A stretch of 64,000 nucleotides of DNA from Candidatus Hydrogenedentota bacterium (GTDB taxonomy: Bacteria > Hydrogenedentota > Hydrogenedentia > Hydrogenedentales > SLHB01), in contig JADLHJ010000011.1 in NCBI GenBank assembly GCA_020848835.1, forward strand, positions 10,862 through 74,861, in the 5' to 3' direction. Made by a program: the position numbers and the translations under genes. Below, piece by piece: positions 4,909 through 36,400 of this stretch. Every line of letters starts with the position of its first letter. Position 1 is the first letter of the stretch. Below the pieces are notes generated by a model. The model had not been told where the DNA came from. It saw only the letters and a list, made by a program, of their open reading frames with translations, and made no database searches.

Positions 4909-5073
4909 TGGAATCGCCGCCACCTCGCGACGATGATAGCACCCCGGTGCATTCGCGAGATAGGGCAAGGGACCGATACCAAAACCTATGCCCATTGCGT
5001 ATAGTAAAAATCTGCAAGGCATACGGCGGGTAGTCCGCTGAGCCATTACGACCTGGGGAAAGGATATGGCGCA

Positions 5074-5253: not shown

Positions 5254-5409
5254 TCTCGATGGGCCATATTTGCCGTTGCTGGAGGGCCGTGGAAACCGGG
5301 GCGTGCCGGTCAACCTTCGGCCCTCGGTTTTCTTCACCACGCGAGTACCCCGTTGACCGCCAAGTCTATTCAGACTCCTCTGCAGGGGTTCCGGAAAGGG
5401 GCGCGAGGA

Positions 5410-9590: not shown

Positions 9591-12500
9591 TTGGTGATGA
9601 AGCAGTGTACGAGAGCATTTCGTTTCCGCAATGTCTTCAAGGGTCTGGGCTGGCTCGCGATGGCATGCGCCGTCGTAGCGTTCGGGTCTGGCGCGGTCGC
9701 CAAGGCCGAAGACGCCAAAATCGACTTCAACAAGGAAATCGCGCCGATCCTCGCGGCTTCGTGCGTGAAGTGCCACGGGCCGGAACGCCAGAAGGCCAAG
9801 TTGCGGCTGGATTCGCCCGAGGCGATCAACGCCGGGAGCGAAAACGGCCCCGTGCTGGTTGCCGGAAAACCTGGCGAGAGCACACTTTGCAAACTCATTT
9901 CCCTGCCTGCGGACCACCCGGACCGCATGCCGGTAAACGCGGACCCGCTAAACCCCGAACAGGTCGCGCTCATCGCCAAGTGGATTGAGCAGGGCGCGGC
10001 CATGCTGGCGGCGGAAGGTGCGCCGGCCGATGCGCCCGCGCCTGCACCAACAACGGAACCGGCAGCCGCGACGGGCAACGTGGATTTCTCAAAAGACATC
10101 TATCCAATCTTTGTGGCGTCATGCGTAAAATGCCACGGGCCGGAGAAACAAAAAGGCGAACTTCGTCTCGATTCGATAGATGCCATTAAGGCTGGTGGTG
10201 AAAACGGCCCAATATTTGTCGCCGGTAAGCCCGCGGAGAGTTCGCTGTGCGTGCTCATCTCGAAGCCAAAAGGCGACCCGGACATCATGCCCGCGAACGG
10301 CGACCCACTGACGCCCGAACAGATCGCGCTCGTCGCGAAATGGATCGAGCAGGGCGCGGTGTTGCCGGAAACCTTGCCGGATATTTCCACGTTGGGCGCA
10401 CCCGCGCCGGTATCGTCCCCTGCTGCAGCTGCAGGTTCGGAAGCGGAAGCAGAGGCCCAGCTTCTCGCGAAACTTGCCGATGGTGTGCAGCCCGCCGCAG
10501 CGGAAACTATCGAGCCAGTTAAACAGATCGGCGGTCTCGCAATGCCGCTGGACCTGAAGTCTCCCCTGCTCTCCGTGAATTTGCAGTACGGCGCGGACAA
10601 AGTGAACGACGAGGCCTTGGCGAAACTCGCTGCGCTTGCGCCACAGGTCACCTGGCTGAATCTCGCCGGTACGAAAGTTACCGATGCCGGCCTCGCGCAG
10701 GTCGCGAACCTGAAAAAAATCACACGCCTGCACCTTGAACGTACGGAAGTGACCGATGCGGGTATCGCGAATCTTGCGGGCCTGGAAAATCTTCAGTACC
10801 TGAATGTCTACGGCACAAAGGTAAGTGACGCGAGCATCGACGCGCTGCAGAAGATGGCGTCGCTGAAAAAACTTTATGTTTGGAATTCGCAGATAACGAA
10901 AGAAGGCGCGGACAAATTGAAAGATGCGCGCCCAGACTTGTATGTAAACATCGGCATCGAGCAAGCGCCGCCTGCACCTGCAGCCGCTACCGCAGGCACC
11001 GTGGATTTTGCAAAGGACATCGCGCCGATCTTGCAGGCCAAGTGCTATGGTTGCCACGGTCCGGAGAAGCAGGCCGGTAAACTGCGTCTCGATCTTCCCG
11101 AATGTATCACGGCGGGTGGCGCAAGCGGTCCGGCGGTTCTCGCGGGCAAGCCCGGAGAGAGCCCGCTGTGCGTGCGCGTTCACCTTCCCAAGGAAGACGA
11201 AAAACACATGCCGAAAGAAGGCGAGCCTCTGACTGCGGAGCAGTTGGCGCTTGTTGCAAAGTGGATCACCGAGGGCGCGGTATTGCCCGCGAAGGTGGCT
11301 GATGCGCCCGCTCCTGCCGACAGTAAACCCGCGATTGACCTGGCTTTGTTCTTCGAGGCTGACGGATGCTGCGCCAAGGCCAAGGCGGCTGGAAAAGATT
11401 GCGATCATCCCTGCTGCGCGGAGGCCAAGGCGAAGGGCGAAGTCTGCGCTAAGTGTAACGCTAAGGGCGCAAAATTGTCCGCGCTCGTGAAATCGTTTGA
11501 CGCGGACGGGTGCTGCGCAAAAGCAATCGCGGGCGGAAAGCCTTGTGACCACCCCTGCTGCGTCGAGGCGGTCGCGAAGGGCGAGTTGTGTGCGAAGTGC
11601 AATCCTAACGGCGCAATAACAATCCAGCTTTCCAAGTTCGACAAAGACAGTTGCTGCGCCAAGTCGGTTGCGGAAGGCAGGGAGTGTGATCACCCCTGCT
11701 GCGCGGAAGCGCGCGCCAAAGGAGAAGTCTGTGCCAAATGCAATCCAAGCATCGCAAAGGCGAAATTGACGGCATTGTTCGACGCGGACAGTTGTTGCAG
11801 CAAAGCACTGGCAGCTTCGAAAGACTGCGAACATCCGTGTTGTGTGGAGGCACGCGGCAAAGGGGAAGCGTGCACAAAATGCAATCCGGGCGCAGCGGAG
11901 AAATTGAAGGCCGCCGCCCCGCCGGGCGCAGCGGCGCCCGATCCGAACGCGCCGAAAAAAGTCGCCTCACTCACCTACAACCGCTTCATTCACCCCATCC
12001 TCGCCGACAACTGCTTCACTTGCCACGGCCCCGACAAGAATGCGCGCAAAGGCGACCTGCGCCTCGATGTGCGGGAGGCGGCACTCGAAACGCACGAGGG
12101 CCGGGCTGCGATTGTGCCGGGGAACAGCGGAGCAAGTGAGTTGGTGCGCCGCATAACATCGTCGAAGGCCGACGATCTTATGCCGCCCACCAACTCGGGA
12201 CACGCGCTGAAGCCGGAGCAGATTGCGGCGTTGACAAAATGGATCGACGACGGCGCGGAATACGAACCGCACTGGTCATACCTGCCGGTTGTCCGCCCGG
12301 AAGTGCCCTCGACTTCAAGCGACGCGTGGTCAAAAAATCCTGTCGATCGATTTGTTCTGGCTAACCTTGATGTGCACGGCTTGAAACCATCGCCAGAAGC
12401 CGATCGCATCACCTTGATTCGCCGCGCGAGTCTCGACCTGATTGGCCTCCCTCCCACGCCGGACGAAGTGGACGCGTTTGTAAATGACACTGCACCGGAC

Positions 12501-14972
12501 GCTTACGAAAAGCTGATCGACCGTCTGCTGGCCTCGCCGCAGTACGGCGAACGCATGGCAGTAAGCTGGCTGGACTGGGTGCGCTACGCCGACACAAACG
12601 GATATCACGGCGACGAGCCGCGAATTGTATGGCCATACCGAGACTACGTGATTAAAGCCTTTAACGAAAATATGCCTTTCGATCGCTTCACAATCGAACA
12701 ACTCGCGGGCGACCTTTTACCAAACGCCACGCGCGAACAGAAAATCGCGTCGGGATATAACCGCCTCAACCAACTCACGGCGGAAGGCGGCGCGCAGGCC
12801 GCGGAATACGTGCAGAAGTATATGGCCGACCGCATTCGCACGACGACGTCGGTGTGGATGGGATCGACGTTTGGCTGTGCAGAGTGCCACGATCATAAGT
12901 TCGACCCGACGACGATGAAGGATTTCTACTCGTTGGGGGCATTCTTTGCTGACGTCAACGAGAAAGGCGTCTATACGGCAGGCGGGCCTTGGGATCCGAC
13001 CTTGCCGCTACCCGACGAAGCGCAGGCCGCGGAACAGTCCACTCTGGAATCGTCCATTGCGTCGCTCGAGCAATCGCTCGACACCCCAACCGATGCACTA
13101 GCCGCCGCGCAACAAGCTTGGGAAGCGGCGCATCGGGCCGAATTGGCTGCGGCGTATAACGATTGGACGATGCTTCTGCCCGAATCCGTAACAGCAGAAG
13201 GCGGCGCTACGCCGACGGCGGGAAACGATTTGATTGTCACCGTCTCTGGCGCGGACCCTGCGACGAACGTCTACAACGTGACGCTGCCGGTGAACCAGCC
13301 CGCGATCACCGGTTTGCGCCTGGAGCTTTTCACGCATCCGAAGAGCGGTAAATTATCGCGCGCCGGTGGCAATGGAAATATCATACTCAGCGGGTTTGAC
13401 GTTGCCCTTACGTCGGCACCGGATCAAGTCATTCCGATTGCATCTGCGCAGGCTGACTACGAACAGCCAAACTATCCCATCGCCGCGGCACTGGATGCTG
13501 ACCCGAAAACTGGCTGGGCCGTTTCCGGACACGAGGTGAAGGGCATCAATCATTTCGCTCTGTTCACATTCGCGCAGCCAATCGCAGGTGGGCCGGGCAC
13601 AAAGCTGATCGTCCGCTTGAAACAGGAATCGGAATTTCCGAACCACACTATCCTGAAATTCCGGCTATCTGCGACCACGGTGGCCACGCCCAAACTGGTG
13701 AGCACCGCTAGCGCCAATGCGACAATTTCAGCGATCCTGCTGAAAGACGCTTCAGCGAGGACCGTCGAAGACAATACCGAACTTGCCAAACATTACCGCA
13801 GCATCGCGCCAGAACTTGAGGCAACCCGCGCTGAATTGAAGGCAAAGCAGGACCGGCTCGCCGCATTGAATAAAGAAATTCCGACCATGCTTGTCGCGAA
13901 TTCAATTTCGCCGCGCGAAGTAAAGATTCTGCCGCGAGGGAACTTCCTCGATACTTCCGGAGATGTCGTACAACCGGCAACGCCGCACTACCTTCCTCAG
14001 TTGCAGATCACGGATCGCCGCGCAAACCGGCTCGATCTCGCGCAATGGCTTGTGTCGCGCGAAAATCCCGTTACCGCGCGCACGACGGTGAATCGATTTT
14101 GGGAAATGTATTTCGGCTCAGGCCTGTCTAAAGTGCTCGACGATCTCGGCGCGCGCGGCGAGTGGCCAGTGAATGCAGACACGTTGGATTGGCTCTCGGC
14201 GGAATTCATGGACAGCGGCTGGGATGTAAAGCACATCGTTAGGTTGATGGTCACTTCAGCAACGTATCGCCAATCGTCGAGCGTCACAACCGACCTGAAT
14301 GCAACGGACCCGTTCAATCGCCTGTACGCGCGACAGTCCACTTACAGGCTCGCCGCTGAAGAAGTGCGCGATAGCGCGCTACGCATCGCCGGTCTGCTTT
14401 CGCCAAAGCTCGGCGGGCGCACCGTGTTCCCGTATCAGCCAGATGGCTACTATGCCGACTGCAATACCTTTTCCGAACCTGCTCGCTGGCTCACTAGTCC
14501 GGGTGAAGACCAATACCGGCGTGGGCTGTATACGTTTTGGAAACGCTCCTTCCTGCACCCGAGCATGCTGGCTTTCGATGCGCCCACGCGCGAAGAGTGC
14601 ACCGCGGAACGTGTCATCTCGAACACACCCCTGCAAGCCCTCGCACTGCTGAATGATCCAAGCTACGTGGAAGCGTCCCGTGTGTTCGCAGAGCATATAA
14701 TGAAAGACGGCGGCGCAACCCCCGAATCGCGCATTCAGTTCGCTTTCCGCCGTGCACTGTCCCGAAATGCGTCGGCGGATGAAATCGCCGTACTCACCGC
14801 ACTCTGTAAAAAGCATTATGACGAATTCTCAAAAGAGCCTGATATGGCAAAGCAGGCCATTAGCGTTGGCCAGGCACCGGTGCCTGCCGAAGTAAATGTC
14901 GCCGAACTCGCCGCGTGGACCTCTGTCGCACGCACGATCTTGAATTTGCACGAAACGATCACGCGAACCTAG
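9591..14972 (+). CDS. giant PSCyt1(x4)-LRR-Cys-repeat-PSCyt2(DUF1549)-PSD1(DUF1553) protein
   Basis: Signal peptide. Four planctomycete cytochrome-c-like modules with CxxCH (CVKCHGPE x2, CYGCHGPE, CFTCHGPD). Leucine-rich repeats at about 10540-10940. DUF1549 signature NPVDRFVLANL...LIRRASLDLIGLPPTPDEVDAFV. DUF1553 signature TVNRFWEMYFGSGL...FDAPTREEC. Confidence 0.85.
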   Translation: MVMKQCTRAFRFRNVFKGLGWLAMACAVVAFGSGAVAKAEDAKIDFNKEIAPILAASCVKCHGPERQKAKLRLDSPEAINAGSENGPVLVAGKPGESTLCKLISLPADHPDRMPVNADPLNPEQVALIAKWIEQGAAMLAAEGAPADAPAPAPTTEPAAATGNVDFSKDIYPIFVASCVKCHGPEKQKGELRLDSIDAIKAGGENGPIFVAGKPAESSLCVLISKPKGDPDIMPANGDPLTPEQIALVAKWIEQGAVLPETLPDISTLGAPAPVSSPAAAAGSEAEAEAQLLAKLADGVQPAAAETIEPVKQIGGLAMPLDLKSPLLSVNLQYGADKVNDEALAKLAALAPQVTWLNLAGTKVTDAGLAQVANLKKITRLHLERTEVTDAGIANLAGLENLQYLNVYGTKVSDASIDALQKMASLKKLYVWNSQITKEGADKLKDARPDLYVNIGIEQAPPAPAAATAGTVDFAKDIAPILQAKCYGCHGPEKQAGKLRLDLPECITAGGASGPAVLAGKPGESPLCVRVHLPKEDEKHMPKEGEPLTAEQLALVAKWITEGAVLPAKVADAPAPADSKPAIDLALFFEADGCCAKAKAAGKDCDHPCCAEAKAKGEVCAKCNAKGAKLSALVKSFDADGCCAKAIAGGKPCDHPCCVEAVAKGELCAKCNPNGAITIQLSKFDKDSCCAKSVAEGRECDHPCCAEARAKGEVCAKCNPSIAKAKLTALFDADSCCSKALAASKDCEHPCCVEARGKGEACTKCNPGAAEKLKAAAPPGAAAPDPNAPKKVASLTYNRFIHPILADNCFTCHGPDKNARKGDLRLDVREAALETHEGRAAIVPGNSGASELVRRITSSKADDLMPPTNSGHALKPEQIAALTKWIDDGAEYEPHWSYLPVVRPEVPSTSSDAWSKNPVDRFVLANLDVHGLKPSPEADRITLIRRASLDLIGLPPTPDEVDAFVNDTAPDAYEKLIDRLLASPQYGERMAVSWLDWVRYADTNGYHGDEPRIVWPYRDYVIKAFNENMPFDRFTIEQLAGDLLPNATREQKIASGYNRLNQLTAEGGAQAAEYVQKYMADRIRTTTSVWMGSTFGCAECHDHKFDPTTMKDFYSLGAFFADVNEKGVYTAGGPWDPTLPLPDEAQAAEQSTLESSIASLEQSLDTPTDALAAAQQAWEAAHRAELAAAYNDWTMLLPESVTAEGGATPTAGNDLIVTVSGADPATNVYNVTLPVNQPAITGLRLELFTHPKSGKLSRAGGNGNIILSGFDVALTSAPDQVIPIASAQADYEQPNYPIAAALDADPKTGWAVSGHEVKGINHFALFTFAQPIAGGPGTKLIVRLKQESEFPNHTILKFRLSATTVATPKLVSTASANATISAILLKDASARTVEDNTELAKHYRSIAPELEATRAELKAKQDRLAALNKEIPTMLVANSISPREVKILPRGNFLDTSGDVVQPATPHYLPQLQITDRRANRLDLAQWLVSRENPVTARTTVNRFWEMYFGSGLSKVLDDLGARGEWPVNADTLDWLSAEFMDSGWDVKHIVRLMVTSATYRQSSSVTTDLNATDPFNRLYARQSTYRLAAEEVRDSALRIAGLLSPKLGGRTVFPYQPDGYYADCNTFSEPARWLTSPGEDQYRRGLYTFWKRSFLHPSMLAFDAPTREECTAERVISNTPLQALALLNDPSYVEASRVFAEHIMKDGGATPESRIQFAFRRALSRNASADEIAVLTALCKKHYDEFSKEPDMAKQAISVGQAPVPAEVNVAELAAWTSVARTILNLHETITRT
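11347..11895 (+). repeat. four tandem ~45-aa cysteine-rich repeats inside the PSCyt protein
   Basis: Each unit reads F(E/D)ADGCCAKAxAxGKxC(D/E)HPCCxEAxAKGExCAKCN (7 Cys). Units begin at about 11350, 11500, 11640 and 11770. Confidence 0.6.
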
Positions 14973-22411: not shown

Positions 22412-23188
22412 CTACTTACCGTTAATCGAACCTTTGCGCGCTTTCTTAATCATATCGCCTGAGTAAGGATTGCCTTCCTTCACCCGCTCATCGGCCTTCG
22501 CTGCATCGTCCGCGTCTTTCCATTCGCCGGTATACTTGAGTCCACCGGGTCGCGGTGTGTTGCGATCGCGCGCGTCTGCAGGCCATTTCTGCTTAGAGAA
22601 TTTCGCAGCGGCGCGCGCAACCTCTGCCCGTTCTTCCGGCGTCATTGCATATCGATCGACTTCCGATTGCGCGACAGTCACAGCGCCCGGACCAAACACC
22701 GCGCCCACACTACCGGCGCCGCCGTAGTAAAAGATCGCCGCAGTAGACGGCAAATCCGCCAGCGCGGCGAGGCGCCGATCCGAATCGATGAATTCGTTCG
22801 CGGGATGCGTCTGCTCGACTGGAAGTGGATACTGCCCGGCCATGCCCATATAGGTGCCCGCACCGATTTCAACGAGACCGCGGCGAACACCACGAAAAAC
22901 CTGCACGCCACCACCAACGCGACCCGCTTTCTGCTCGCCTTCGTTTACGGTAAAGCGAAATTGATACTTAAACGCTTTAAGACCGCGCCAAAAGGCTTTG
23001 AAAGGACGCGTTGCTGGTTCTTCAGGATTGCCGTACTTGCCCCAGTGTGAAGGTTCGATTGCCGTGCGCGGCTCGGATCTTGTGCTCTTGTGTCCCCAGC
23101 TCATCGCTGGCGGCGTCAAATCATCTACCGCACCGGCCGTAAACGAGACGGCGCAGGCCGCCGCTATCAGGAGTCTCATCCGCTTCAT
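22412..23188 (-). CDS. secreted hypothetical protein
   Basis: Signal peptide MKRMRLLIAAACAVSFTAGA. 258 aa. No recognisable domain. Confidence 0.5.
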   Translation of the reverse strand: MKRMRLLIAAACAVSFTAGAVDDLTPPAMSWGHKSTRSEPRTAIEPSHWGKYGNPEEPATRPFKAFWRGLKAFKYQFRFTVNEGEQKAGRVGGGVQVFRGVRRGLVEIGAGTYMGMAGQYPLPVEQTHPANEFIDSDRRLAALADLPSTAAIFYYGGAGSVGAVFGPGAVTVAQSEVDRYAMTPEERAEVARAAAKFSKQKWPADARDRNTPRPGGLKYTGEWKDADDAAKADERVKEGNPYSGDMIKKARKGSINGK

Positions 23189-23333: not shown

Positions 23334-24815
23334 TTATTCTGCCACGGTGATGGCAAGCGTAGGCCGCCCTCTCTCGCCGGAAATTGCCGACGCCCAATAC
23401 CACGCACTCGCGTCGGGCCACGATTCTGTGTCTTTGAGCCAATCGTTCAATTCGCCGCCTTGGGGGTGGTCCCAGTTCAGCGCGATATAACATTCACGCA
23501 CACTTGTCTGGCTGCCATCCGGGCCTCGATACCAAAACCTGCTCCAGAGGCGTCCGGCCTCGTCGCGAAATGTCGGCTGTGGCGTGCATGTTCCGCCCTG
23601 GGCAAGATAGCAGTTTTGCGCTGAGTGCAAGTCACGTGTCGGCCCATCGCATAATCGCAGCAGTACATGCCTCTTGCCGTCGTGCCACCGAAATTGTGCA
23701 GACTGGCCGGGCACGTCCTGAAGCCAGGCCTTCATAGCGCCGGTCTCTTCAACGGGCTCCAACCATTTACCGTTCCATGTTTGCGGCCATGCTATCGCGC
23801 GATGCGATACTTGCGACGGTTTTGATGCAGCTTCGCTTACGCCAGAACGCACACCCGCCACCACGCACCCCATCACAAAACATACCGAGAGCAATCTCCC
23901 GGCGGGCAGCCTTGGCCACACGAGGTGCCGTCTTGCGTCCAGCCTCTTCCAACTTCTGATTCCGTTTGCGATCACTAGAAGGAGCAACGCGCATTCCGCG
24001 AACACGATAATCCCTAAAACACCGTGCTCGGGATAGTCCGGCCCGATTCCTGCCACGTACAGCGTTGCCGCGCGGTGGGCGTTCCCGAAAATCGCAAGTG
24101 CAAAAGATATTGCTATTAGAAGCGCAGTGCGCAACGGATTAAATTGGTACAGCACTGCGACACCCGCGCCCATCGCGATTGACGCCGAAAGCATGCGCAC
24201 GCCACTGCATGGCGCGTCCACAAAAAACGTCGTCGCGCCGTTTGACAGCGCGGTCCCCTCCGCCCGAATTTCCGGCCCCAGCATGAACGCAGCGATGTTA
24301 CTCGACGCCACGCGCAATGGAAATCCGATGAAGAAATCGAGCGATGTCGCAACGTGGACACATAGCAGCATTAGCACCGCGATCCCCCACGCGCCCCGCC
24401 GCGATCTTGATGCGAGCGTTCCCATCATGGTGCATCCGACAATTCCAGCAGCCAACTCACACCGAACCAACTGAGGCGCAGTAGGCCAAGTCAGCGCATA
24501 CAACCCTAACAGCACAACCGCCGCGATCAACCAACCGCGCGCCGGGGCAACGCGCAAAGGACCGCCCGACGGGCCCGTGATCAGGAACAGCCACGCGCCA
24601 ACGGCGAACAGAGCGATGACCGCGCCCATCGGCGATCCCCACGGCGCAAACCAGCGTATCCACAACTCGGGCGCTGCGGCCCAGACCGCGGCGACACTTG
24701 CCAAGACCCAAGAGAAGCCAATCAAAGTTTGGAGCGCGACGCGCTGCGGCGGCACGATCTTTGGGTGTGCGTGCATCACCAGCACGTCAATTGCTTTATT
24801 GGCGGCAGAACCCAT
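23334..24815 (-). CDS. exosortase (EpsH/Xrt family) fused to a C-terminal EpsI-like domain
   Basis: Eight-TM core with active-site motif FFVDAPCSGVRMLSASIAMG (exosortase Cys-Ser-Gly-Arg). C-terminal about 190 aa carry an EpsI-like LHSAQNCYLAQGG motif (compare HSPxxCLPGxGW). ATG at 24815 lies 2 nt after the upstream stop (TGA AC ATG). Confidence 0.75.
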   Translation of the reverse strand: MGSAANKAIDVLVMHAHPKIVPPQRVALQTLIGFSWVLASVAAVWAAAPELWIRWFAPWGSPMGAVIALFAVGAWLFLITGPSGGPLRVAPARGWLIAAVVLLGLYALTWPTAPQLVRCELAAGIVGCTMMGTLASRSRRGAWGIAVLMLLCVHVATSLDFFIGFPLRVASSNIAAFMLGPEIRAEGTALSNGATTFFVDAPCSGVRMLSASIAMGAGVAVLYQFNPLRTALLIAISFALAIFGNAHRAATLYVAGIGPDYPEHGVLGIIVFAECALLLLVIANGIRSWKRLDARRHLVWPRLPAGRLLSVCFVMGCVVAGVRSGVSEAASKPSQVSHRAIAWPQTWNGKWLEPVEETGAMKAWLQDVPGQSAQFRWHDGKRHVLLRLCDGPTRDLHSAQNCYLAQGGTCTPQPTFRDEAGRLWSRFWYRGPDGSQTSVRECYIALNWDHPQGGELNDWLKDTESWPDASAWYWASAISGERGRPTLAITVAE

Positions 24816-24817: not shown

Positions 24818-27550
24818 TCACGCGCGCCTTAACTGCTGCCTGCGCTGGTAGGCCACCCACGCGAGCACAATACACACAACAACAATCAACGCCCACTCGT
24901 GTGGCTCCGGCACGCCGGGTATTGCCTCTTCGTTTTTCGTGGGATCAAGACCGTGCCGCGCGTATTGTTCCATCGTTTCAAGCACGACGGCGCCGGAGAG
25001 CGGCGTTACCAACCGCGCTTCAATGGCAACCTGACGGAGCGCGTCAATCTCGTTCGACTGGTGGCTCTGCACTGCTCGCATGACAGCATCATTCACGGCC
25101 AGTCGCACAAGATGGCTTGCAGGGGGCTCAATTGCGGTTTGCACCGCAGCGTCAGAGACACCCATGGCAAACTTCGCGGAAACGGATTCTGGGGATCGTA
25201 TTTTGACGACCTGCGAAATTGTTTCTTCCAACGATTCGAATATGGGCACACGCTCGATAATCGCGAGATCGCTGCATTGCTCCAATAAGCGGTTCGGCCC
25301 GGGGACGGCCTCTATCGAGAGTATCTTCACACTCGCGCCACCGCGTCTGCGCTCCCACTGCCGCAGTGGTTCAACGGAAGATAGTTCGACCGGCAACGGT
25401 CCATGAACCCAAATCACCGTACCGCCGCTACCCGCAATATCGCAGGCATGCACAAGCGCCGGCACCTGATCGCAACCGCCTACATACTCGCGCGACGCCA
25501 GCCACTCTCCCAGCGTGGTCGAAGGCGCTGACGATTTATCTTCATAAGTCTCGACCTTGCTTCCCGCAAGCACTGCATTAACATCGACGTCGTCAGGCAC
25601 AGACGACAGAATAGACTCCCAAGGGATGTTTGTATCGCGCATCGACGCCGATCCATCCACCACGAAGCATATCGGATGCTTGCTGCCCGCATTCGGCAAC
25701 TGGCGCGTCATCGTCGCTGATTGAGTTCCCAACGTACCGAGGAAAATATCGTCCGACGTATAGGAAGCAGATACATTGATCGTTCCAGCGTCTACGCGCT
25801 GAAGATCGTTTTCAGCCAATGCGCCGCGCAACGCAATACGCCCGGGCGCCGGCTCTTCCCACTGGAGCGATTTCGACGAAGCCTCGACACCGGCATCGCA
25901 TTCCACCCATACCCCATGTGAAAACTCCGGCGGAACCGTAAAATTGCGTTCGGAGATATACGGCAAACGCAGGTAGGATTTTCCGTCGCGCTCGACTATA
26001 GGCGCGGTAACGCCGATCTTCAGTTTCATCGTGCTGTGGGCATTGATCGGAAAACATTGCAGGAGCACCTTATCGGGACCGCACACATTTAGTAACGCAG
26101 GATCGCGCCGCTGCACGACTGCCACGCTTTGATACGCCTGGCGCACCTGGTCGCGCCCGCCAAACGCGGCTTCGCGTTCTTCCCCGTTAATCCAAAGCGT
26201 CAACCTGCTGGCAACGGCACCGTGCGGCAAGTCAATCTGTGCGCGGGCCTCGCGCTGCCTCCCGGACGCGTTGTTGAACTCAATCGTCCATTCCATATAG
26301 GCGAGGTGCGGCGATCCTTCCGCACCCAGGCGCATGATGTTTACATCCATCGTGCTCGCGTGCAGGGACAATCCGTGCACGCGGCCTGCAACACTGGTTC
26401 CGCCGATTTCGCTGTCAGTCACGCGAGCGTCTTCAAAATCCTCAGCCATCAGGGTGCGTGTACGAAACGTGCCGCGCGTGTCCGGTCGCGGCACGGCGTT
26501 ATATGGCACGCCTGTCACGCGAAAATACAAGTCGCGACAAGCGCCTTGGCGCGCAATGTCTTCGGCGGTCCAACGTCGCGTGGGCCCAATCCCGCGCACA
26601 ATCGGCGAATAACACGTCAACAACACCTGATGTTCGAGATGAAGGTTACGAATGAGGGCGATGCCGCGGTCGCGTTCAGAGGGATTCTCGCTCAGTGCCA
26701 TTGGAATCACTTGTGCGGCAATGAGCCGCGGCCCCGCGTAGATTGAACCCGCCGCAATCACCAACAGAGTGCCCGCAGCCGAATACCAGACTGCCTTAGC
26801 CCAGTGCGTGGAAGTTTCCGCGCGCAACCGGTAAAGCGCGCGCATTTGGAACAGGCCCGCAATGAGACAGAACAGCGGTGAAAAGCCCATTATCCCCAAG
26901 CCGAAAGCCAGAAGCGCAAAAACAGCGATCGGCAAAATAGGGATATACACCGCCGCATAAATCAGCGAGAGAGTTGTTGCGTATGCGTTGGCAAAAAATA
27001 CGGCGTTGTGCCAACGCGCGATCACCTGAGAACTTTCAGCGGGCTTGCGCGTAAGCATGTACAGGAAGACGTCTGTCGCAAGTATGGAAGCCAGCAGCAA
27101 GACGCCGGCGGCAAGGTGCCACGCGGTGGGAATCGGATCGGCGTACAACTCCGCCATGGCCCCCATCGAAAGCTCGAACATCAGGGAGAGCGCGGGAATG
27201 ACTAAACCACAGAGAATTACAAAACTGCGGCCGCTCACCGAATAGATCGGCCTCACTTTTTTCAACCGCTCCTCTACCGCAACGTGCGATCGCCCGTTGC
27301 CATTTGATCGCGCGACGCTATCGCCGGCGACGTCGGCAACCTGTTCTGGCGTGCCGATGCTGGCAATGGCATGTTTCACGTGGACGTCTGTGACGAGCAG
27401 TGGCGATTTACCTTCTGCTTCTGTGCGGATGTGTTGCTTCAGCCCGTCGACGATTTCGTCTGCGTCGTCGCCGTTTGCGCGCGACAACGCGTCTACCCGC
27501 GCGAGATATTCGTTCAGTTGCTTCTCGGCCTCGGGAGTCCATTGCGTCAT
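24818..27550 (-). CDS. HAAS(DUF1700)-like N-domain, multi-TM, VIT-like plus vWA, PEP-CTERM-tailed protein
   Basis: Residues 1-75 (AEKQLNEYLARVDALS...DEIVDGLKQHIRTE...IASIGTPEQVA) have the HAAS/DUF1700 pattern. About six TM helices at residues 105-285. VIT-like block at about 385-520 (TIEFNN, LWINGEE). vWA MIDAS DGSASM at 632-637. Terminal GVPEPHEWALIVVVCIVLAWVAYQRRQQLRRA is a PEP-CTERM-type sorting signal. Confidence 0.75.
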   Translation of the reverse strand: MTQWTPEAEKQLNEYLARVDALSRANGDDADEIVDGLKQHIRTEAEGKSPLLVTDVHVKHAIASIGTPEQVADVAGDSVARSNGNGRSHVAVEERLKKVRPIYSVSGRSFVILCGLVIPALSLMFELSMGAMAELYADPIPTAWHLAAGVLLLASILATDVFLYMLTRKPAESSQVIARWHNAVFFANAYATTLSLIYAAVYIPILPIAVFALLAFGLGIMGFSPLFCLIAGLFQMRALYRLRAETSTHWAKAVWYSAAGTLLVIAAGSIYAGPRLIAAQVIPMALSENPSERDRGIALIRNLHLEHQVLLTCYSPIVRGIGPTRRWTAEDIARQGACRDLYFRVTGVPYNAVPRPDTRGTFRTRTLMAEDFEDARVTDSEIGGTSVAGRVHGLSLHASTMDVNIMRLGAEGSPHLAYMEWTIEFNNASGRQREARAQIDLPHGAVASRLTLWINGEEREAAFGGRDQVRQAYQSVAVVQRRDPALLNVCGPDKVLLQCFPINAHSTMKLKIGVTAPIVERDGKSYLRLPYISERNFTVPPEFSHGVWVECDAGVEASSKSLQWEEPAPGRIALRGALAENDLQRVDAGTINVSASYTSDDIFLGTLGTQSATMTRQLPNAGSKHPICFVVDGSASMRDTNIPWESILSSVPDDVDVNAVLAGSKVETYEDKSSAPSTTLGEWLASREYVGGCDQVPALVHACDIAGSGGTVIWVHGPLPVELSSVEPLRQWERRRGGASVKILSIEAVPGPNRLLEQCSDLAIIERVPIFESLEETISQVVKIRSPESVSAKFAMGVSDAAVQTAIEPPASHLVRLAVNDAVMRAVQSHQSNEIDALRQVAIEARLVTPLSGAVVLETMEQYARHGLDPTKNEEAIPGVPEPHEWALIVVVCIVLAWVAYQRRQQLRRA

Positions 27551-27915
27551 GGTTTACCTTCCTTTTCCAACAAGCTGCCGATGTCGTTGGCCAATCCGCA
27601 CCAATAGGTCCGCATAGCATGCACGGTCCTACGTCCTTCATCGGTAAGAACGTAATATTTCCGCGCGGGACCGTTAGAGGATTCTTCGAGACGCGATGTG
27701 ATGAGGCCCGCACTGCGCAGGCGGGATAGGAGCGGATAAATGGTACCTTCGGTGATGACCAAAGCTTTGATGTTGGCGAGACGCTTCACTAGATCATAAG
27801 CGTACATCTCACCCTCGGCCAAAACGGCGACGATGCACAGCTCAAGCAATCCCTTCCGGACCTGGGTCACCCAATTGTCCAGGTCGAATGCAGTCGGCTT
27901 GGGCTCGGTATGCAT
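27547..27915 (-). CDS. PadR family transcriptional regulator
   Basis: Winged-helix motif LELCIVAVLAEGEMYAYDLVKRL...GTIYPLLSRLRSAGLI...KYYVLTDEGR. Overlaps the downstream gene by 4 nt (ATGA). Confidence 0.85.
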   Translation of the reverse strand: MHTEPKPTAFDLDNWVTQVRKGLLELCIVAVLAEGEMYAYDLVKRLANIKALVITEGTIYPLLSRLRSAGLITSRLEESSNGPARKYYVLTDEGRRTVHAMRTYWCGLANDIGSLLEKEGKP

Positions 27916-27951
27916 GTATTAATTCTAATACAAACTACCTTGTTATGCAAG
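27916..27951 (-). promoter_or_regulatory. candidate PadR operator palindromes abutting the padR start codon
   Basis: GTATTA-ATTC-TAATAC perfect palindrome at 27916-27931, directly 5' of the ATG. Second palindrome CCTTG-TTATG-CAAGG at 27937-27951. Confidence 0.3.
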
Positions 27952-28036: not shown

Positions 28037-28672
28037 CTATTTGGTGCGTTTTCGAAGACCCATCGCAGCGAGTCCCAGGCCGAGCAATCCGACAGTGGCC
28101 GGCTCTGGAACCACGCAACCGTTTAGGCTACCGGCATAGACACTGTCGTCGCAGGGACCTTGAGTCCATTTTACTGCGGCTGTGTTGCAGGAGAAGTCGT
28201 GGCATCCGCCAGTTGGCAGACCGGTGAAAAAGTCGAGCGTATCTAAATTGCTGCCAGTGACGAGGAAAGTTACGGTCACATCGTTTCCATTGGTGAGACC
28301 CCAGTTTCCCCAACCCATGTCGAACTCGTAGTCGTAGGTGCCGAAGGGGCCTGCGGTGGAATTGGGAGTAAGCGATGTGTTCGAAAGCGGGCCGTCGCTG
28401 AGAATAGACATCGACGTTACGTCGCTCGACACATTGAAATACAATTCGGAGAGCGTATAGTCGTTCGGCCAACTGGTCTGGTTGAATATCTGCATCGTCA
28501 ACACATTGCTGCCGGCGTCGAAGCCCCAGATCACTTCGGCGTCAAACACGCCTGCGTTCGGCTGATCGTTATCGCTCAACTGCCCGCTAAACAGAATGAC
28601 TTCCGCGTTCGCGGATAATGTGGCAATGGCGATCAGCGCCAATGTCAGGATGGGTAAATAACGTGTCTTCAT
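28037..28672 (-). CDS. PEP-CTERM sorting-domain protein
   Basis: Signal peptide. C-terminal VPEPATVGLLGLGLAAMGLRKRTK. Confidence 0.8.
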   Translation of the reverse strand: MKTRYLPILTLALIAIATLSANAEVILFSGQLSDNDQPNAGVFDAEVIWGFDAGSNVLTMQIFNQTSWPNDYTLSELYFNVSSDVTSMSILSDGPLSNTSLTPNSTAGPFGTYDYEFDMGWGNWGLTNGNDVTVTFLVTGSNLDTLDFFTGLPTGGCHDFSCNTAAVKWTQGPCDDSVYAGSLNGCVVPEPATVGLLGLGLAAMGLRKRTK

Positions 28673-29032: not shown

Positions 29033-29815
29033 TTAGGCGCGTTTCATGCGACGGCGCAAACCGGCCGCGGCGAGGCCGAGTCCGAGTAACGCGAGGCTGG
29101 AGGGTTCGGGAACAACGACTTGCACGTCGCCTTCCGTAATCGCCCACTCTTCAAATCCGCCGTTGTTGTTCTCGTTCACGCCGAAAAGCGAGTAGAGATA
29201 AACATACTCATCCCCAGTTGCGAACACGCTGCTCGGAACATAGAACAGCATGTCGCCACTGCCGCTACCACTGTTGAGATTCGCATCAACGAGGATATAT
29301 GAATCTTCCACTGCGTCAAGGTCGTAAACGAGCGTAGAGTCCGCCAAGTCGATAATGCCGGCTGTAAATGTCTCCGCACTCTGATTCGGCGTGCCCGACG
29401 TGAAGATCTGAATCTCATCCAGCGAAATAAAGGAGTCGCTACCCGACTGGTTCACGTCCAGAATAAATTCGCGATACTCGACACCATCGATTACGACAAC
29501 CGGGATATCCGTCAGTAAAAGTTCATGGTTGAAGTTGTCAGGCGCACCATTGTCGAGCGTTCCGTTTTCGGTGGTGTTATACGCCTGAACCGTGTCCGTA
29601 TTATTACCGATCTGCACAAAGCTATCGATCGTTCCAGTACCTGTTGCCTGCCCGTCCCACTGAAGAAACAAGGCGCCATTGACTTCGCCTTCGGACCCTA
29701 CAGTTGTAAGATCGACGGTTTCTGCTGAAACGACACCGGCGAAGGCCAACGCGCTCAGCATTAGAATTGTTGATTGAATTCCTCGCCGCATACTCATTTT
29801 CATCATCCTTTGCAT
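29033..29815 (-). CDS. PEP-CTERM sorting-domain protein
   Basis: C-terminal VPEPSSLALLGLGLAAAGLRRRMKRA. Signal peptide after MQRMMKMSMRRGIQSTILMLSALAFAGVVSA. Several in-frame ATGs lie between 29789 and 29815. Confidence 0.8.
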   Translation of the reverse strand: MQRMMKMSMRRGIQSTILMLSALAFAGVVSAETVDLTTVGSEGEVNGALFLQWDGQATGTGTIDSFVQIGNNTDTVQAYNTTENGTLDNGAPDNFNHELLLTDIPVVVIDGVEYREFILDVNQSGSDSFISLDEIQIFTSGTPNQSAETFTAGIIDLADSTLVYDLDAVEDSYILVDANLNSGSGSGDMLFYVPSSVFATGDEYVYLYSLFGVNENNNGGFEEWAITEGDVQVVVPEPSSLALLGLGLAAAGLRRRMKRA

Positions 29816-30129
29816 TGTGACACTTAGCAGCTCGCCCACACTGCGGATGAATGAGCAAACCGCATGCCGAAGGCTAATAACGGGCTTTGTACGCCGAAAT
29901 ATTGCTACGGAAATGTAAAAGGAACGCGCCAAGGCGAGTGACAACAATATCTTAGGAAAAACATAGGGGTATTGCCGGAAGGCGTAGGAAATCGTAGCGA
30001 AAACTCGTAGGAAATCACAACTGCATGCGATAAAGCCGACAAAGCCCTGATAAAGGTTATTCAGCGTTGCACAATAGTTTCATAGTATAGTTGTATATAT
30101 AAACAAATCAACCGCCCAAATCAATTCTA

Positions 30130-33494: not shown

Positions 33495-36400
33495 TTAACC
33501 GTAATACGGTCGCATCCCTACCGCAAGCTTGCCCACGCGCAGAGCGTTCTCTATCTGCGTGATTCCGATATCGCGCGCAGTCTCCAGCATCCGCAGTTGG
33601 TTTGCTTCTAACGCTGCGATCGGGGTTCCGTCTTGAAATAGAAGCCTATTGTTGGTCAACGACGATACCCGCGCGCCCGGCGTAACAATACCGACCAGGT
33701 TCAGCGGGTCTGCGGCACTGATCGTAACGAGCTCGCCCTTCGCCTCTTTTCTGCGCAAACTCCGCAGCGTGCCGACAGCTTCCGGCAGCGCGAATTGTTC
33801 GCCGCTCACACCGCTGACGAAATACCCGCCGCGAATTTCGCCGCGCGCTTCCCAGCGGCGATAAATGCGCGCGAGGTCATACCACGTTACGTTGAATGCC
33901 TCGCGCTCGAGCAAGCGGCGAAACACCACGCCATATCGGCGCAGCAGCGTACGCGCGAAACGCTCTTGCGCCGCTTGCGTCTCCGGTGATACGGAATATG
34001 TGCGTGCGTCACTAAGCGGCGGCGCGTCTGCCCATGCGGGTCTCAATAACGACCAGCGCCCCGCGTGCTCCACGCTTGCAATATTCGTCTTCGCATGACG
34101 CCTGCCTTCGTTGCGCCCGAGGGTGGGCCGCTTGTCCGACGGCACGAGTAGTGCGCGCAACCCATCGAAACCATCCGCTGTGACAATCCCGAGCGATGCC
34201 AATTCCGCGAGCGACTGCTCCACCTGCACGGGCAACAGTCCCGACGAGCGGACAATTTCTGTGAAGAACTGCGCGCCGCTTTTATTCAATGCGTCGAACA
34301 CGCGGCGCGCATTCGCCGGCAACTCGGCGGTTTGCGGCCCGCTCGACAATTGCAACCAATCGTGAAGTGACTCACGCAGGTAAAGTGCCATCGGGCTGCT
34401 GCGCAATGGCGCGAACATTTTTGCCACACCGTTCTGCGGCGCGGTGAATCGGCCCCACCCCGCGCGTCCCGAAAAACACAAGCGATCCAAGTGGTGCGAT
34501 TTGTAATCGCCCACGCGCGCGCTAATGACCTCCGGTTCCCAGGCGGACAAGGGCAGCTCGCAACCGTCAAGCAATTCAATGATGGTCTCGACACCATGCG
34601 GCCCATTCAAGCGATGCTCAGAATCCACATGCTGCCACGCAAACAAAAACCGCAAGTACTCGTGTGCAGACACCGCTTGTATCTCGGAGCGCAGCCGATC
34701 GATGGTCATGCGGTGGATACGTGCGAGCAATCGCCGGTCACACCATTCCGTTTCCTCCGCATCGGGGCGAAAATGTCCGCGCAACACGAAGCCTTCGCCT
34801 TCCAACGCAACCAACGCGATTTCGATGTCAGACGCAGCGATATAGATCGCGCGCGACAACGCAGCGACGGTAATTGGCCCGGACACTTCTATCCGCCCGC
34901 GAACCAGTTCACGCACGGCTTCTTCGCGCGTATTGGACCACTCACCCACTTCCGGAACAAAGGCGGCATCAAATGCGCCGCCGAAAATCACGCGCAACAT
35001 CGGCACCCGTTCCGAAGCCGTATAGTAGGTCATTTCGCCCAAACGGGCCATGGCCACCCGGCGTTGCGCAATCAGTTCGTCGAGCACGCGGTTCGCGTCG
35101 AGTTCGAGCGATTCGTCGCGGGCGCGGACCGTGCGCCGAATCTCCTCCTCAGACATCACGCCTACCATCATTAATGCATCGTGCAATTCGTCTGCGTTGC
35201 TCGCATCCGGCCAGGCGTCCGCCTGCACTTTCTTGATCGCCGCGATATCCAGCGCGCCGAGTTCATCACCGCGCGCGGGTTCCGATGCGCGCCGCGTGTA
35301 TACCGCCTGCGTGCGGCGCTCTTCCAAGGGCGCGTTATCCAGGAACGCGTACGGCTTCGCATTCAAAATCTCGTGCGCGAATACCGATGGCTCCGGCAAA
35401 TCGCGCGCGATGCAGCGAATAACGCCCGCTTCCATGCGCCGCAGCACGGCCTCAAGCCCGTCGATATCCATCGCTTCCGTGAGACAGTCTTCAATAGTCT
35501 GCGTAATTAAAGGATGGTCAGGAACTTCGCGGTCGCCCACGATGTGTTCGAGGCACGCCAATTGATCGGGAAACACCGCGGCCATCAAGTTCTCTGCTTC
35601 CATTCGTTGTAAAGGCGCAGGCAATCGCGCATTGCCACGACGACGCGGTATCGCAAGCGACCGCGTGGCATTCCAGCGCCAGCGTATCGTGAACATCGGC
35701 GCATCGAGCAAGGCTTGCACCAGCACCTCGCGCACAGTATTCGCGTGCAAATACCGGAACACGTCTTCGAGCGGAAACGAATGCTGAGTTCCCAATGAGA
35801 TTACGATTGCGTCTTCCGTCGCGGCCGCCTGCAACTCGAAATTGAAACTCCTGCAAAATCGCTTTCGCAGCGCAAGCCCCCACGCGCGATTGATGCGATT
35901 GCCATAAGGCGAATGCAACACCAACTGCATCCCGCCGGATTCGTCAAAGAACCGCTCCAACACCAATGTATGTTGCGATGGAATTACACCCAAAGTGCGG
36001 TATGCATCGGCGAAATACGATGCGAGCTGTTCCGCGCCGTGCCGCGGCAACATGCCATTCAACTCCGCGCACAACCATTCGGTAAGATTGCCGGATGTAT
36101 TTGCTTGCCGCGGTGCACTCAATTCTACGGCAGACCCGCCAGACCCTATAGCCTCGGCAGACCCGATTAGTATTCGCCCACATTCTTCGCGCAATTGCGA
36201 CACCGCGCGCGACAATTCATCCGTCCGCGACGGCGCCTCGCCGAGCCAGAACGGAATCCCCGGCGGTTGTCCTTTCGCATCCTCGACGCGCACTGTGCTC
36301 GCATTGATCCCGAGAATGCGCCACGACGTATTGCCCAGTTGGAAAATGTCACCGGCCATGCTCTCGACTGCGAAGTCTTCATTCACCGTGCCGATAAATG

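Follow-up and report, generated by a model that had tools for sequence, protein, structure and literature searches.

A probable one-enzyme, one-substrate exosortase system with a HAAS-PadR regulator in a Hydrogenedentota genome

We identified an operon of three genes on the minus strand of the window (the whole stretch of DNA analysed here, 64,000 nucleotides long) that probably encodes a dedicated exosortase system, with one enzyme and one substrate under HAAS-PadR control. One-to-one pairs of enzyme and target genes were termed "dedicated systems" by Haft (bioRxiv 10.1101/2023.06.07.544157). The genes occur in the order padR, VIT-vWA gene, exosortase gene. We read the operon as an unnamed form of a known system type, comparable to XrtN and its VIT protein, with a HAAS-PadR switch attached.

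27922-27948, minus strand: conserved non-coding block GCATAACAAGGTAGTTTGTATTAGAAT directly upstream of padR, candidate promoter
27547-27915, minus strand: padR, a 122-aa stand-alone PadR-type winged-helix transcription regulator (PF03551, E=2.7e-20)
24818-27550, minus strand: 910-aa polytopic membrane protein with HAAS, five TM helices, VIT, vWA and a PEP-CTERM-type tail, probable substrate
23334-24815, minus strand: exosortase gene, 493 aa plus stop, with its ATG 2 nt past the stop of the VIT gene

The exosortase open reading frame runs from an ATG at 24813-24815 to a stop at 23334-23336. The stop of the 910-aa gene is at 24818-24820, and the junction reads TGA AC ATG, as an earlier reading of the sequence alone had stated. 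The database copy (P0001, 493 aa) is 100% identical and uses the same ATG start as all homologues. A longer version starting from GTG at 24896 (the longest open reading frame) was rejected, given its 79-nt overlap with the VIT gene and the lack of support from any homologue. At its other end, the VIT gene start overlaps the padR stop by 4 nt (ATGA). Genes downstream of the exosortase encode a 258-aa secreted protein, a PMT_2/ArnT-like glycosyltransferase and a DUF4139 protein. Their synteny is restricted to the closest relative (L005), and thus we place them outside the system. A literature search for Hydrogenedentes together with exosortase returned nothing.

The exosortase core

23931-24815, minus strand: eight-helix exosortase core (aa 1-295)
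24207-24209, minus strand: codon of Cys203, catalytic candidate
24072-24074, minus strand: codon of Arg248, catalytic candidate together with Asn245
24024-24026, minus strand: codon of His264, catalytic candidate
23826-23897, minus strand: ninth TM helix (aa 307-330), which returns the chain to the periplasm (hydropathy and AlphaFold2 model)
23337-23798, minus strand: periplasmic C-terminal domain (aa 340-493) of XrtT type, probably distantly EpsI-like, with motif HSAQNCYLAQGG at 23592-23627

Judged by its sequence, the 493-aa protein is a true exosortase. It matches the Pfam family PF09721 (E=1e-16; 61.6 bits, cutoff 25.7) and the NCBIfam exosortase/archaeosortase signature TIGR04178 (35.7 bits, cutoff 23), well above what chance would give. 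The motifs that define exosortases, Cys-x-Gly, Asn-x-x-Arg and His-x-x-x-Gly (Haft 2006, PMC1569441), are present as C203-S-G205, N245-A-H-R248 and H264-G-V-L-G268. Among 16 homologues, C203, R248 and G268 are invariant and N245 and H264 each occur in at least 90%; conservation of the Cys, Arg and Asn was a check proposed by the sequence-only reading. Both peptides that it quoted were found in the exosortase: FFVDAPCSGVRML, which contains Cys203, and LHSAQNCYLAQGG, which contains the motif of the C-terminal domain.

Hydropathy and an AlphaFold2 model (pLDDT 79.6) indicate eight core helices, a basic loop (RSWKRLDARRH), a ninth helix and a mixed alpha/beta domain. Both the eight-helix core and the extra periplasmic domain that had been proposed are thus recovered, the core by hydropathy and the secondary structure of the model. 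The domain comprises about 155 aa; the earlier figure of about 190 aa after the core also counts the ninth helix. In the model, Cys203, Arg248 and His264 are located where helices 6, 7 and 8 reach the periplasm, an outer-face placement that is deduced from helix order and the positive-inside rule. The loop before the ninth helix is strongly basic and is therefore assigned to the cytoplasmic side. A Foldseek search of the full-length model against the PDB gave nothing significant.

The enzyme reaches no curated cutoff among the named exosortase subfamilies (XrtA-Z and cyanoexosortases). The best-scoring are Exosortase Q (XrtQ, NF012182; 62 bits, on the core, cutoff 270) and Exosortase T (XrtT, NF033770; 53 bits, cutoff 250), followed by XrtN (49, cutoff 200), XrtA (33, cutoff 208), XrtD (27, cutoff 400) and XrtO (24, cutoff 250). 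We rejected filing it under XrtQ, XrtT or XrtN, as all scores are at most a quarter of the cutoff. Relatives in four further loci (L130 and L132-L134) are likewise below every named-subfamily cutoff, including the short split enzyme of L132, which scores 167 of 270 for XrtQ. Nothing relevant was found in the literature on XrtN, XrtT, XrtQ and MSEP-CTERM.

The C-terminal domain and its relation to EpsI

On sequence grounds, we assign the C-terminal domain to the family represented by the C-terminal part of the XrtT model. This model is matched by 137 of 145 relatives of the domain, stand-alone copies included. In the window enzyme, aa 38-407 correspond to model positions 4-383 of 472, an alignment that takes in the core and also the first half of the domain. 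We identified 741 relatives (at 50% clustering), some joined to an exosortase and others free-standing proteins of about 170 aa; the latter make up about a third of the 150 relatives listed. In two loci (L132 and L141) a gene of its own encodes the domain, immediately behind that of a short exosortase. Among the invariant residues are W343/P344, H397, C402, G407, W424/S425 and W466/D468/W472/W474. Searches of the PDB with the domain by profile and by sequence gave no match, and Foldseek with the domain model gave nothing significant (best 3lyd, E=0.04, TM 0.34).

The domain had been described as EpsI-like, and the enzyme as comparable to EpsH-EpsI fusions. The part of this claim that concerns the EpsI models did not hold; absence of HMM similarity to EpsI, which the sequence-only reading had itself named as grounds for refutation, is what the searches gave. 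TIGR02914 and PF11984 (DUF3485) do not match the domain or the whole protein at E<=10, nor any of its 145 relatives at E<=0.001. As positive controls, 40 of 40 EpsI proteins match PF11984, EpsH-EpsI fusions match TIGR02914 at 103-146 bits, and genuine EpsI and fusions together score 103-183 bits. By these comparisons, "EpsH-EpsI fusion subfamily" is not a fair label for the window enzyme.

A more distant kinship was suggested by three kinds of evidence: profile comparison, a common H-x4-C-x2-G-x-G motif and a fused-or-adjacent gene pattern. Using larger profiles, hhalign placed the two families in register with a score of 35.9 (probability 50%, P=1.7e-4); the reversed profile scored 13.4 and 30 column-shuffled EpsI profiles 9.3-18.5 (n=31 controls). 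The two aligned segments (WP..G..L, then the motif) have the same order and spacing in both families. The motif itself, which had been called close to the EpsI hallmark H-S-P-x-x-C-L-P-G-x-G-W, shares with it the His, the Cys, both Gly and the identical spacing, but both Pro are missing and the Trp is replaced by Gly here and by Tyr in the wider family (consensus LHPAxDCxRGxGY). Positions ~372-383 of the XrtT model hold both the window motif (aa 397-408) and the motif of an XrtD protein that is a real EpsI fusion (L016, aa 412-423).

The architecture is also that of the EpsH/EpsI systems (TIGR02602 and TIGR02914/PF11984; fused in XrtD, TIGR04152, and in XrtW). In these, as here, one TM helix and then a periplasmic domain of about 160-170 aa come after an eight-helix exosortase; the domain is part of the same protein or the product of the gene that follows, and has a His-x4-Cys-x2-Gly-x-Gly-aromatic motif at the equivalent place. 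The systems differ in the motif (LHSAENCYLAxGG in the window, HSPxNCLPGxGW in EpsI) and the remainder of the domain can barely be aligned. The window enzyme also lies outside a polysaccharide locus and apparently has a single target.

The domain may instead be unrelated to EpsI, with the H-x4-C-x2-G-x-G pattern arising by convergence or chance in an independent invention of XrtT/XrtQ-like exosortases. Besides the silence of the EpsI models and the missing prolines (HSP..CLPG), this would be consistent with the low hhalign probability obtained with small profiles (4.9%) and with cross HMM searches between the families, which gave at most 14 bits. One 12-residue motif supplies most of the hhalign score; with it masked, an N-terminal stretch of 37 columns alone aligns (score 21.8, P=0.022). 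We regard independent origin as possible but rather unlikely, given the gap between the larger-profile score and its controls, the conserved order and spacing of the two segments, the superposition of the two motifs on the XrtT model and the shared placement of both domains behind a single TM helix in the periplasm, fused to or directly following an exosortase. Thus, we describe the domain as EpsI-like and probably a distant homologue of EpsI.

The VIT-vWA protein and its pairing with the exosortase

27332-27511, minus strand: HAAS domain (aa 14-73), cytoplasmic, with GxP motif IGTPEQ
26714-27226, minus strand: five-helix membrane domain (aa 109-279), from hydropathy
26015-26305, minus strand: VIT domain (aa 416-512), Pfam, periplasmic
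25643-25657, minus strand: MIDAS-like D-G-S-A-S (aa 632-636) where the vWA domain begins, read from the sequence
24821-24928, minus strand: C-terminal sorting signal EAIPGVPEPHEWALIVVVCIVLAWVAYQRRQQLRRA, with PEP motif, hydrophobic helix and basic cluster

The 910-aa protein begins with a HAAS domain (Pfam PF22564; 29.4 bits, cutoff 27), in which the GxP motif is G-T-P at aa 66-68 and is conserved in the family consensus. A homologous N-terminus is present in 84 of the best 120 members of the VIT family. The five-helix domain that follows has an invariant E126, a D138-P-x-P141 motif and G217/G219/P225, and aligns with the membrane region of the MSEP-CTERM model TIGR04286. The VIT domain scores 30.7 bits (Pfam cutoff 26.5), and all 40 of 40 family members match PF08487. 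In the vWA region, D632 is invariant across the family and S634 nearly so. As a single sequence, the VIT-vWA half has no match in the PDB; the family profile alone reached human inter-alpha-trypsin inhibitor heavy chains, aligning with the vWA region of ITIH4 at the MIDAS-like site (E=1.2e-5) and with ITIH1 (E=9.7e-5).

The tail of the protein, VPEPHEWALIVVVCIVLAWVAYQRRQQLRRA, follows the PEP-CTERM pattern of a PEP motif, about 14-20 hydrophobic residues and a basic cluster at the extreme C-terminus (VPEPHEWAL, helix, RR). The PEP-CTERM HMMs (PF07589 / TIGR02595) do not match the window protein at E<=0.01, and PF07589 is matched by 14 of 40 family members. PEP or PDP occurs within the last 60 aa of 117 of 120 members. 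The family consensus of the tail is [TS]VPx[VI]PEPxxWAL, with P881, E882 and P883 invariant. Together with the gene junction, this tail supports the earlier proposal that the exosortase is tightly coupled to the gene of its probable substrate.

In all 17 distinct loci with the enzyme and sufficient upstream sequence, a VIT-family gene is immediately upstream of the exosortase, and the two genes overlap by up to 4 nt or are separated by no more than a few nt. These loci span several phyla, and most have no other PEP-CTERM gene nearby. A metagenome scan with the exosortase alignment gave 8 confirmed loci, and the clade includes at least 198 VIT partners. The type of tail signal follows whether an enzyme gene is adjacent and which form it has: PEP[EH]E[WI] or PEPEMW tails occur in 13 loci with a fused enzyme (in a 14th fused locus, L139, no tail matched), a split enzyme goes with PEPETW (3 loci), and the 2 loci that lack an adjacent enzyme have PEPGTW or PEPSTW. 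Two VIT-centred loci (L129 and L131) have PadR and HAAS-VIT genes and lack an adjacent exosortase, and thus the pair is not obligatory in cis.

It is improbable, in our assessment, that this enzyme is the general exosortase of the cell, acting on all PEP-CTERM proteins with the VIT-vWA protein as just one client among many or as an accessory factor. The window does contain four open reading frames with canonical PEP-CTERM tails, two of them directly upstream of the operon, and we found no second exosortase or EpsI gene within the 64 kb; a broader substrate range is thus conceivable. The core VPEP is common to all of these signals. However, the VIT tail differs from the four canonical tails in having acidic residues and Trp after PEP and a helix without the Gly-rich LLGLGL pattern. 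General exosortases usually occur in polysaccharide loci (PMC1569441), and the window locus is not one. The overlap or near-overlap with the VIT gene in every informative locus and the tracking of tail type with the adjacent enzyme also argue for the dedicated system that we favour.

Very unlikely is a VIT-vWA protein that is not cleaved, whose PEP-like tail would serve as a docking helix in a stable complex with a non-proteolytic, exosortase-like partner or sensor: the five N-terminal helices would keep the substrate in the membrane after any cut and the window tail is below the Pfam PEP-CTERM threshold, but the invariant P881-E882-P883, and the full Cys/Arg/His set with its flanking motifs, conserved in the subfamily and in 145 more distant relatives, argue for retained catalysis.

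Regulation, mechanism and related systems

The block upstream of padR contains a candidate promoter (-35 TTGCAT, 17-nt spacer, -10 TAGAAT) and an overlapping palindrome, CTTG-N5-CAAG, which may be the PadR operator. The block occurs once in the window (0 expected by chance). It recurs upstream of padR in the closest relative (L005) and in a Verrucomicrobiae-labelled locus (L131), and a diverged form is found in two others (L003 and L127); the candidate promoter and palindrome are thus conserved across phyla. None of the 7 loci checked has the classical PadR operator, ATGT-N8-ACAT, upstream of padR. PadR and HAAS are both present in 11 loci and both absent in 8 (in 2 of which the sequence is cut inside the VIT gene), and one never occurs without the other.

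HAAS, with its GxP motif, was defined in work that also proposed the HAAS-PadR dyad as a signalling pair (Ravi et al., mSystems 2024, PMC11237479). The window shares with that dyad a stand-alone padR beside a multi-helix membrane protein that carries HAAS and GxP. The dyad partners reported there are PspC, LiaI-LiaF-TM, Toastrack, FtsX-like, FtsW/RodA and VanZ-type domains; in contrast to the window, VIT, vWA, PEP-CTERM and exosortase are not mentioned. In the literature searched, this PSP/HAAS-PadR paper was the only one retrieved and no paper ties HAAS or PadR to an exosortase. The link between an exosortase system and a HAAS-PadR regulator is previously undescribed.

We propose that the three genes are translationally coupled and encode a PadR repressor, an inner-membrane VIT-vWA protein and an exosortase. 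The Cys203/Arg248/His264 centre, at the periplasmic membrane face, would recognise VPEPxEW at the start of the last helix of the substrate. Most likely the exosortase cuts the tail of the VIT protein, and the new C-terminus is probably passed to an acceptor. After cleavage the protein would still be anchored by its N-terminal helices, and thus processing would mature or re-tether it rather than release it. The C-terminal domain, linked through the ninth helix and with its invariant His-x4-Cys, may be an accessory module for handling of substrate or acceptor. HAAS would relay the state of the membrane and VIT-vWA part to PadR, which may bind the conserved palindrome in the candidate operon promoter.

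A bolder possibility, which we consider doubtful, is that processing by the exosortase itself constitutes the signal in a transmembrane switch. The VIT-vWA ectodomain would be held by two membrane anchors before cleavage. Cleavage at VPEPxEW, or transfer of the C-terminus to an envelope acceptor, would then alter the conformation of the five-helix domain, and this change would reach the cytoplasmic HAAS, so that PadR is released or captured.

The closest known parallel is XrtN (TIGR04476) with the "XrtN system VIT domain protein" (TIGR04477) and MSEP-CTERM (TIGR04286), which follows the same logic: a dedicated exosortase beside a multi-helix protein of about 800-900 aa with VIT, vWA and a sorting signal. 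The window protein matches TIGR04477 (E=1.2e-43; 149 bits, cutoff 250) and TIGR04286 (E=1.1e-13; 50 bits, cutoff 150). The signal is VPEPxEWAL in the window and MSEP in the XrtN/MSEP-CTERM system. Unlike XrtN, the window enzyme has a core closest to XrtQ and an extra domain closest to XrtT, and most members add the N-terminal HAAS and the padR gene.

Among eukaryotic proteins, ITIH1 and ITIH4 also have VIT followed by vWA, but without a membrane domain, PEP-CTERM signal or exosortase. ITIH chains are cut near the C-terminus, and the new C-terminus is joined to a glycosaminoglycan. This processing may be regarded as a functional analogy to that by sortase-type enzymes.

Exosortases are widespread, and their study is hampered by the dozens of targets that most of them have. 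We know of no exosortase with an established acceptor, and both one-step transpeptidation and the role of EpsI are unsettled for the field. The system in the window combines, within one operon, a single enzyme and a single obvious target, with a probable transcriptional read-out via HAAS and PadR. The divergent EpsI-like domain exposes the truly conserved features, a His-x4-Cys pair and two glycines. The HAAS-PadR dyad appears to extend to a new class of extracytoplasmic sensor, VIT-vWA. The clade, whose metagenome-assembled genomes are labelled Hydrogenedentes, Verrucomicrobiae and Synergistaceae, among others, is unnamed as a whole in the June 2026 NCBIfam release. If processing is also the signal, the cell would sense the state of its envelope or matrix by a sortase-like reaction, and an exosortase would have a regulatory role for the first time. 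The chemistry of exosortases and EpsI-type domains could then be studied on a single substrate, with a transcriptional reporter built into the system.

The exosortase and its gene neighbourhood

The exosortase (493 aa) is identical to a database protein (P0001) from a Candidatus Hydrogenedentes MAG. The following genes and elements were identified in the window.

9591-14972, plus: large ORF, 1793 aa
18673-22345, minus: ArnT/PMT_2-like membrane glycosyltransferase (598 aa) and DUF4139/DUF4140 protein (534 aa)
22412-23188, minus: signal-peptide protein, 258 aa, directly downstream of the exosortase
23334-24815, minus: exosortase, 493 aa (ATG at 24815, stop at 23334-23336)
24818-27550, minus: VIT protein, 910 aa
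27547-27915, minus: padR, overlapping the VIT gene by 4 nt
27922-27948, minus: conserved 27-nt non-coding block GCATAACAAGGTAGTTTGTATTAGAAT, directly upstream of padR
28037-28672, minus: ordinary PEP-CTERM ORF, small secreted protein
29033-29947, minus: ordinary PEP-CTERM ORF, small secreted protein
33495-37940, minus: large ORF, 1481 aa
38315-41833, plus: large ORF, 1172 aa
52938-53630, plus: ordinary PEP-CTERM ORF, small secreted protein
54402-55076, plus: ordinary PEP-CTERM ORF, small secreted protein

The junction with the upstream VIT gene reads TGA AC ATG, as the sequence-only reading had it, and both peptides quoted in that reading were found in the translated ORF. A GTG start at 24896, giving a longer ORF, was rejected due to overlap with the upstream gene and lack of support from any homologue. 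Identity as an exosortase is borne out by Pfam Exosortase_EpsH (aa 41-283, E=1e-16), by a score above the cutoff of the NCBIfam exosortase/archaeosortase signature, and by the three family-defining motifs of Haft et al. 2006 (PMC1569441). These motifs, Cys-x-Gly (C203-S-G), Asn-x-x-Arg (N245-A-H-R248) and His-x-x-x-Gly (H264...G268), are conserved when 16 full-length homologues (33-78% identity) are aligned, and the candidate catalytic Cys, Asn and Arg (C203, N245, R248) are retained with them. Every homologue in this alignment with a named source is from Hydrogenedentes.

The eight core helices of the sequence-only reading are seen both in hydropathy and in an AlphaFold2 model (pLDDT 79.6, pTM 0.69), with the Cys, Arg and His motif residues where helices 6, 7 and 8 end on the periplasmic side. 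The core is followed by a basic cytoplasmic loop, a ninth helix (aa 307-330) and a mixed alpha/beta domain (aa 340-493; the C-domain), which on the modelled topology must be on the periplasmic side.

No Pfam or NCBIfam model matches the 258-aa downstream protein. Its synteny is limited to the closest relative (locus L005), so it is probably outside the exosortase system; L005 also repeats the order of the ArnT/PMT_2-like and DUF4139/DUF4140 genes.

The C-domain and its relation to EpsI

The C-domain had been described as EpsI-like. Membership by HMM was not borne out: at a limit of E<=10 no Pfam or NCBIfam model matches it, whether it is searched alone or within the full protein, and this holds for EpsI (TIGR02914) and DUF3485 (PF11984) too. 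As a positive control, a genome collection was scanned for DNA encoding H-[ST]-P-x-x-C-x-P-G-x-G-W, which yielded stand-alone (~215 aa) and fusion (~530 aa) proteins from Acidobacteriota, Geobacter, Methylococcaceae, Opitutaceae and others. PF11984 was matched by 40/40 of those tested (E down to 1e-56), a control that the window exosortase fails; the fused examples are XrtD-type enzymes (TIGR02914, 103-146 bits).

When 1.84 billion representatives were searched exhaustively by profile, 741 relatives of the C-domain were recovered at E<=0.001 (575 at E<=1e-10), either as the C-terminus of 440-520-aa exosortases or as stand-alone proteins of ~170 aa. Among the best 145 of the 741, 137 match the exosortase T model and none match the EpsI/DUF3485 models; the C-domain is thus of the XrtT C-terminal type. 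In the stand-alone relatives the match is confined to the C-terminal part of the XrtT model (positions ~296-433).

Profile-profile comparison nevertheless suggests a distant kinship with EpsI. Small alignments gave a probability of 4.9% (P=0.008), and larger profiles (built from 152 C-domains and 82 EpsI domains) gave 49.6% (P=1.7e-4, score 35.9), pairing WPxxfeGxxL with FPxxiGxW and LHPAxDCxRGxGY with HSPxNCLPGxGW. Control scores were 13.4 for an EpsI profile read in reverse and 9.3-18.5 for EpsI profiles with shuffled columns (30 shuffles run). With the 12 motif columns deleted from both profiles, the N-terminal segment alone still aligned (score 21.8, P=0.022). Two further, independent observations agree with this. 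On the XrtT model, the motifs of a genuine EpsI fusion (L016, aa 412-423, up to model position 387) and of the window exosortase (aa 397-408, up to position 383) fall in the same columns. In addition, split enzymes were identified in two comparison loci, mirroring the EpsH and EpsI arrangement:

L132, 6439-7757: core of ~260-270 aa, then a separate 179/180-aa C-domain gene; called genes overlap by 4 nt
L141, ~4600-5947: the same arrangement; overlap of ~40 nt between the ORFs taken from stop to stop

Occurrence "fused with or adjacent to" an exosortase is the behaviour that defined EpsI (PMC1569441). The C-domain is thus probably a distant homologue of EpsI, as profile similarity, motif register and the fused-or-adjacent pattern suggest, and not an EpsI family member by HMM.

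The exosortase also scores below the named subfamily cutoffs (best XrtQ, 62 bits against 270; XrtT, 53 against 250; XrtN, 49 against 200). As it falls short of the curated thresholds of XrtN, EpsH-EpsI fusions, XrtQ and XrtT alike, it is an unnamed subfamily. In sequence, its core is nearest to XrtQ and its extra domain to XrtT; EpsH-EpsI fusions are closest in enzyme architecture, and XrtN with its VIT-domain target is closest in mode of working.

The VIT protein and its pairing with the enzyme

The VIT protein has the following parts.

aa 14-73: HAAS domain, GxP motif present, barely above the Pfam threshold
aa 109-279: five hydrophobic helices
aa 416-512: VIT domain
aa 632: DGSAS MIDAS-like motif of the vWA region
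C-terminal tail, read from sequence: VPEPHEWALIVVVCIVLAWVAYQRRQQLRRA

As the N-terminus is inside and five helices follow, the VIT-vWA part is periplasmic; the last helix then sends the basic tail back to the cytoplasm. This topology is that required by a PEP-CTERM signal. The NCBIfam models "XrtN system VIT domain protein" and "MSEP-CTERM" both match below cutoff. PEP or PDP occurs in the last 60 residues of 117 of the best 120 homologues (consensus [TS]VPx[VI]PEPxxWAL), and 84 of these 120 have a HAAS-like N-terminus (median 884 aa with it vs 814 aa without). Named sources include Hydrogenedentes, Verrucomicrobiae and Synergistaceae MAGs and one "Clostridia" MAG.

Two human inter-alpha-trypsin inhibitor heavy chains are picked up by a profile of the bacterial VIT-vWA family (40 homologues; aa 606-838): H4 (vWA region of ITIH4, E=1.2e-5) and H1 (ITIH1). 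These heavy chains are cleaved near the C-terminus and the new end is covalently linked to glycosaminoglycan, which may be a functional parallel to the VIT protein.

We gathered 21 loci via the enzyme, the C-domain or the VIT protein and scored them with local HMMs. A VIT-family gene is immediately upstream of the enzyme in 17/17 distinct loci having the enzyme and enough upstream sequence; the two genes overlap by at most 4 nt (ATGA) or lie at most a few nt apart. Six loci were reached through the VIT protein: the next gene downstream encodes the enzyme in four of them but not in L129 and L131. The VIT tail type follows the form or presence of the enzyme: PEP[EH]E[WI] or PEPEMW with a fused enzyme (13 loci; the fourteenth, L139, has no tail match), PEPETW with a split enzyme (3 loci), and PEPGTW or PEPSTW with no adjacent enzyme (2 loci). 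Enzyme and target from consecutive genes constitute a "dedicated system" (Haft, bioRxiv 10.1101/2023.06.07.544157), and the exosortase and VIT protein are one in this sense.

The main alternative is a general exosortase serving all PEP-CTERM proteins of the cell. No second exosortase was identified within the 64-kb window for the four ordinary PEP-CTERM proteins, as this explanation would have it. However, their tails (VVPEPxxxxLLGLGL...RRR) are unlike the VIT tail, and the conserved enzyme-VIT gene pairing and co-variation of the VIT signal with the enzyme argue against a general role, which we consider unlikely.

Some loci depart from the usual organization. PadR and HAAS-VIT-vWA without an adjacent exosortase were identified as follows:

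L129, 4657-7679: tail PEPGTWALLLLGL
L131, 295-3229: tail PEPSTWALLTIGG

These tails are nearer to ordinary PEP-CTERM, as if served by a general exosortase elsewhere. Broken gene models were found in three metagenomic relatives; genuine gene splitting, pseudogenes and faulty assembly are all possible causes:

L003, 5272-5511: HAAS as a separate 79-aa ORF
L138, 754-3950: VIT gene spread over two frames
L140, 2-1920: exosortase core and C-domain in different frames

PadR, HAAS and a possible signalling role

PadR and HAAS occur together in 11 loci (L003 counted with HAAS as a separate small ORF) and are both lacking in 8, without exceptions; two of the eight (L135, L140) end inside the VIT gene, so that the upstream region is outside the sequence. 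Loci labelled Hydrogenedentes and Verrucomicrobiae share the GCATAACAAGGTAGTTTGTATTAGAAT block, which also precedes padR in L005 (4862-4888) and the Verrucomicrobiae-labelled L131 (~258-285); L003 and L127 have diverged versions of it. The block can be read as a -35 element (TTGCAT) and a -10 element (TAGAAT) set 17 nt apart, with the palindrome CTTG-N5-CAAG inside it; it looks like a promoter overlapping a palindrome. In both the window and L005, 6 nt separate the end of the -10 element from the ATG of padR, suggesting that the padR mRNA is leaderless.

Building on the observed domain identities, conserved residues, topology, gene order and signal/enzyme co-variation, we propose that padR, VIT and exosortase genes would be expressed together. 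The exosortase would recognise VPEPxEW at the outer end of its partner's last helix and cleave through Cys203 with Arg248 and His264. The new C-terminus would probably be handed to a putative acceptor, with the partner held in the membrane by its five N-terminal helices, and the periplasmic His-x4-Cys domain may aid substrate or acceptor handling. HAAS could couple the state of the membrane or VIT-vWA part to PadR, which would act at the conserved palindrome.

The paper that put forward the HAAS-PadR dyad as a signalling mechanism alternative to two-component systems (PMC11237479) makes no mention of VIT, vWA, PEP-CTERM or exosortase. We found no description in the literature of an exosortase/VIT system combined with HAAS and PadR. 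Should exosortase processing prove to be the signalling step, the system would gain much interest.
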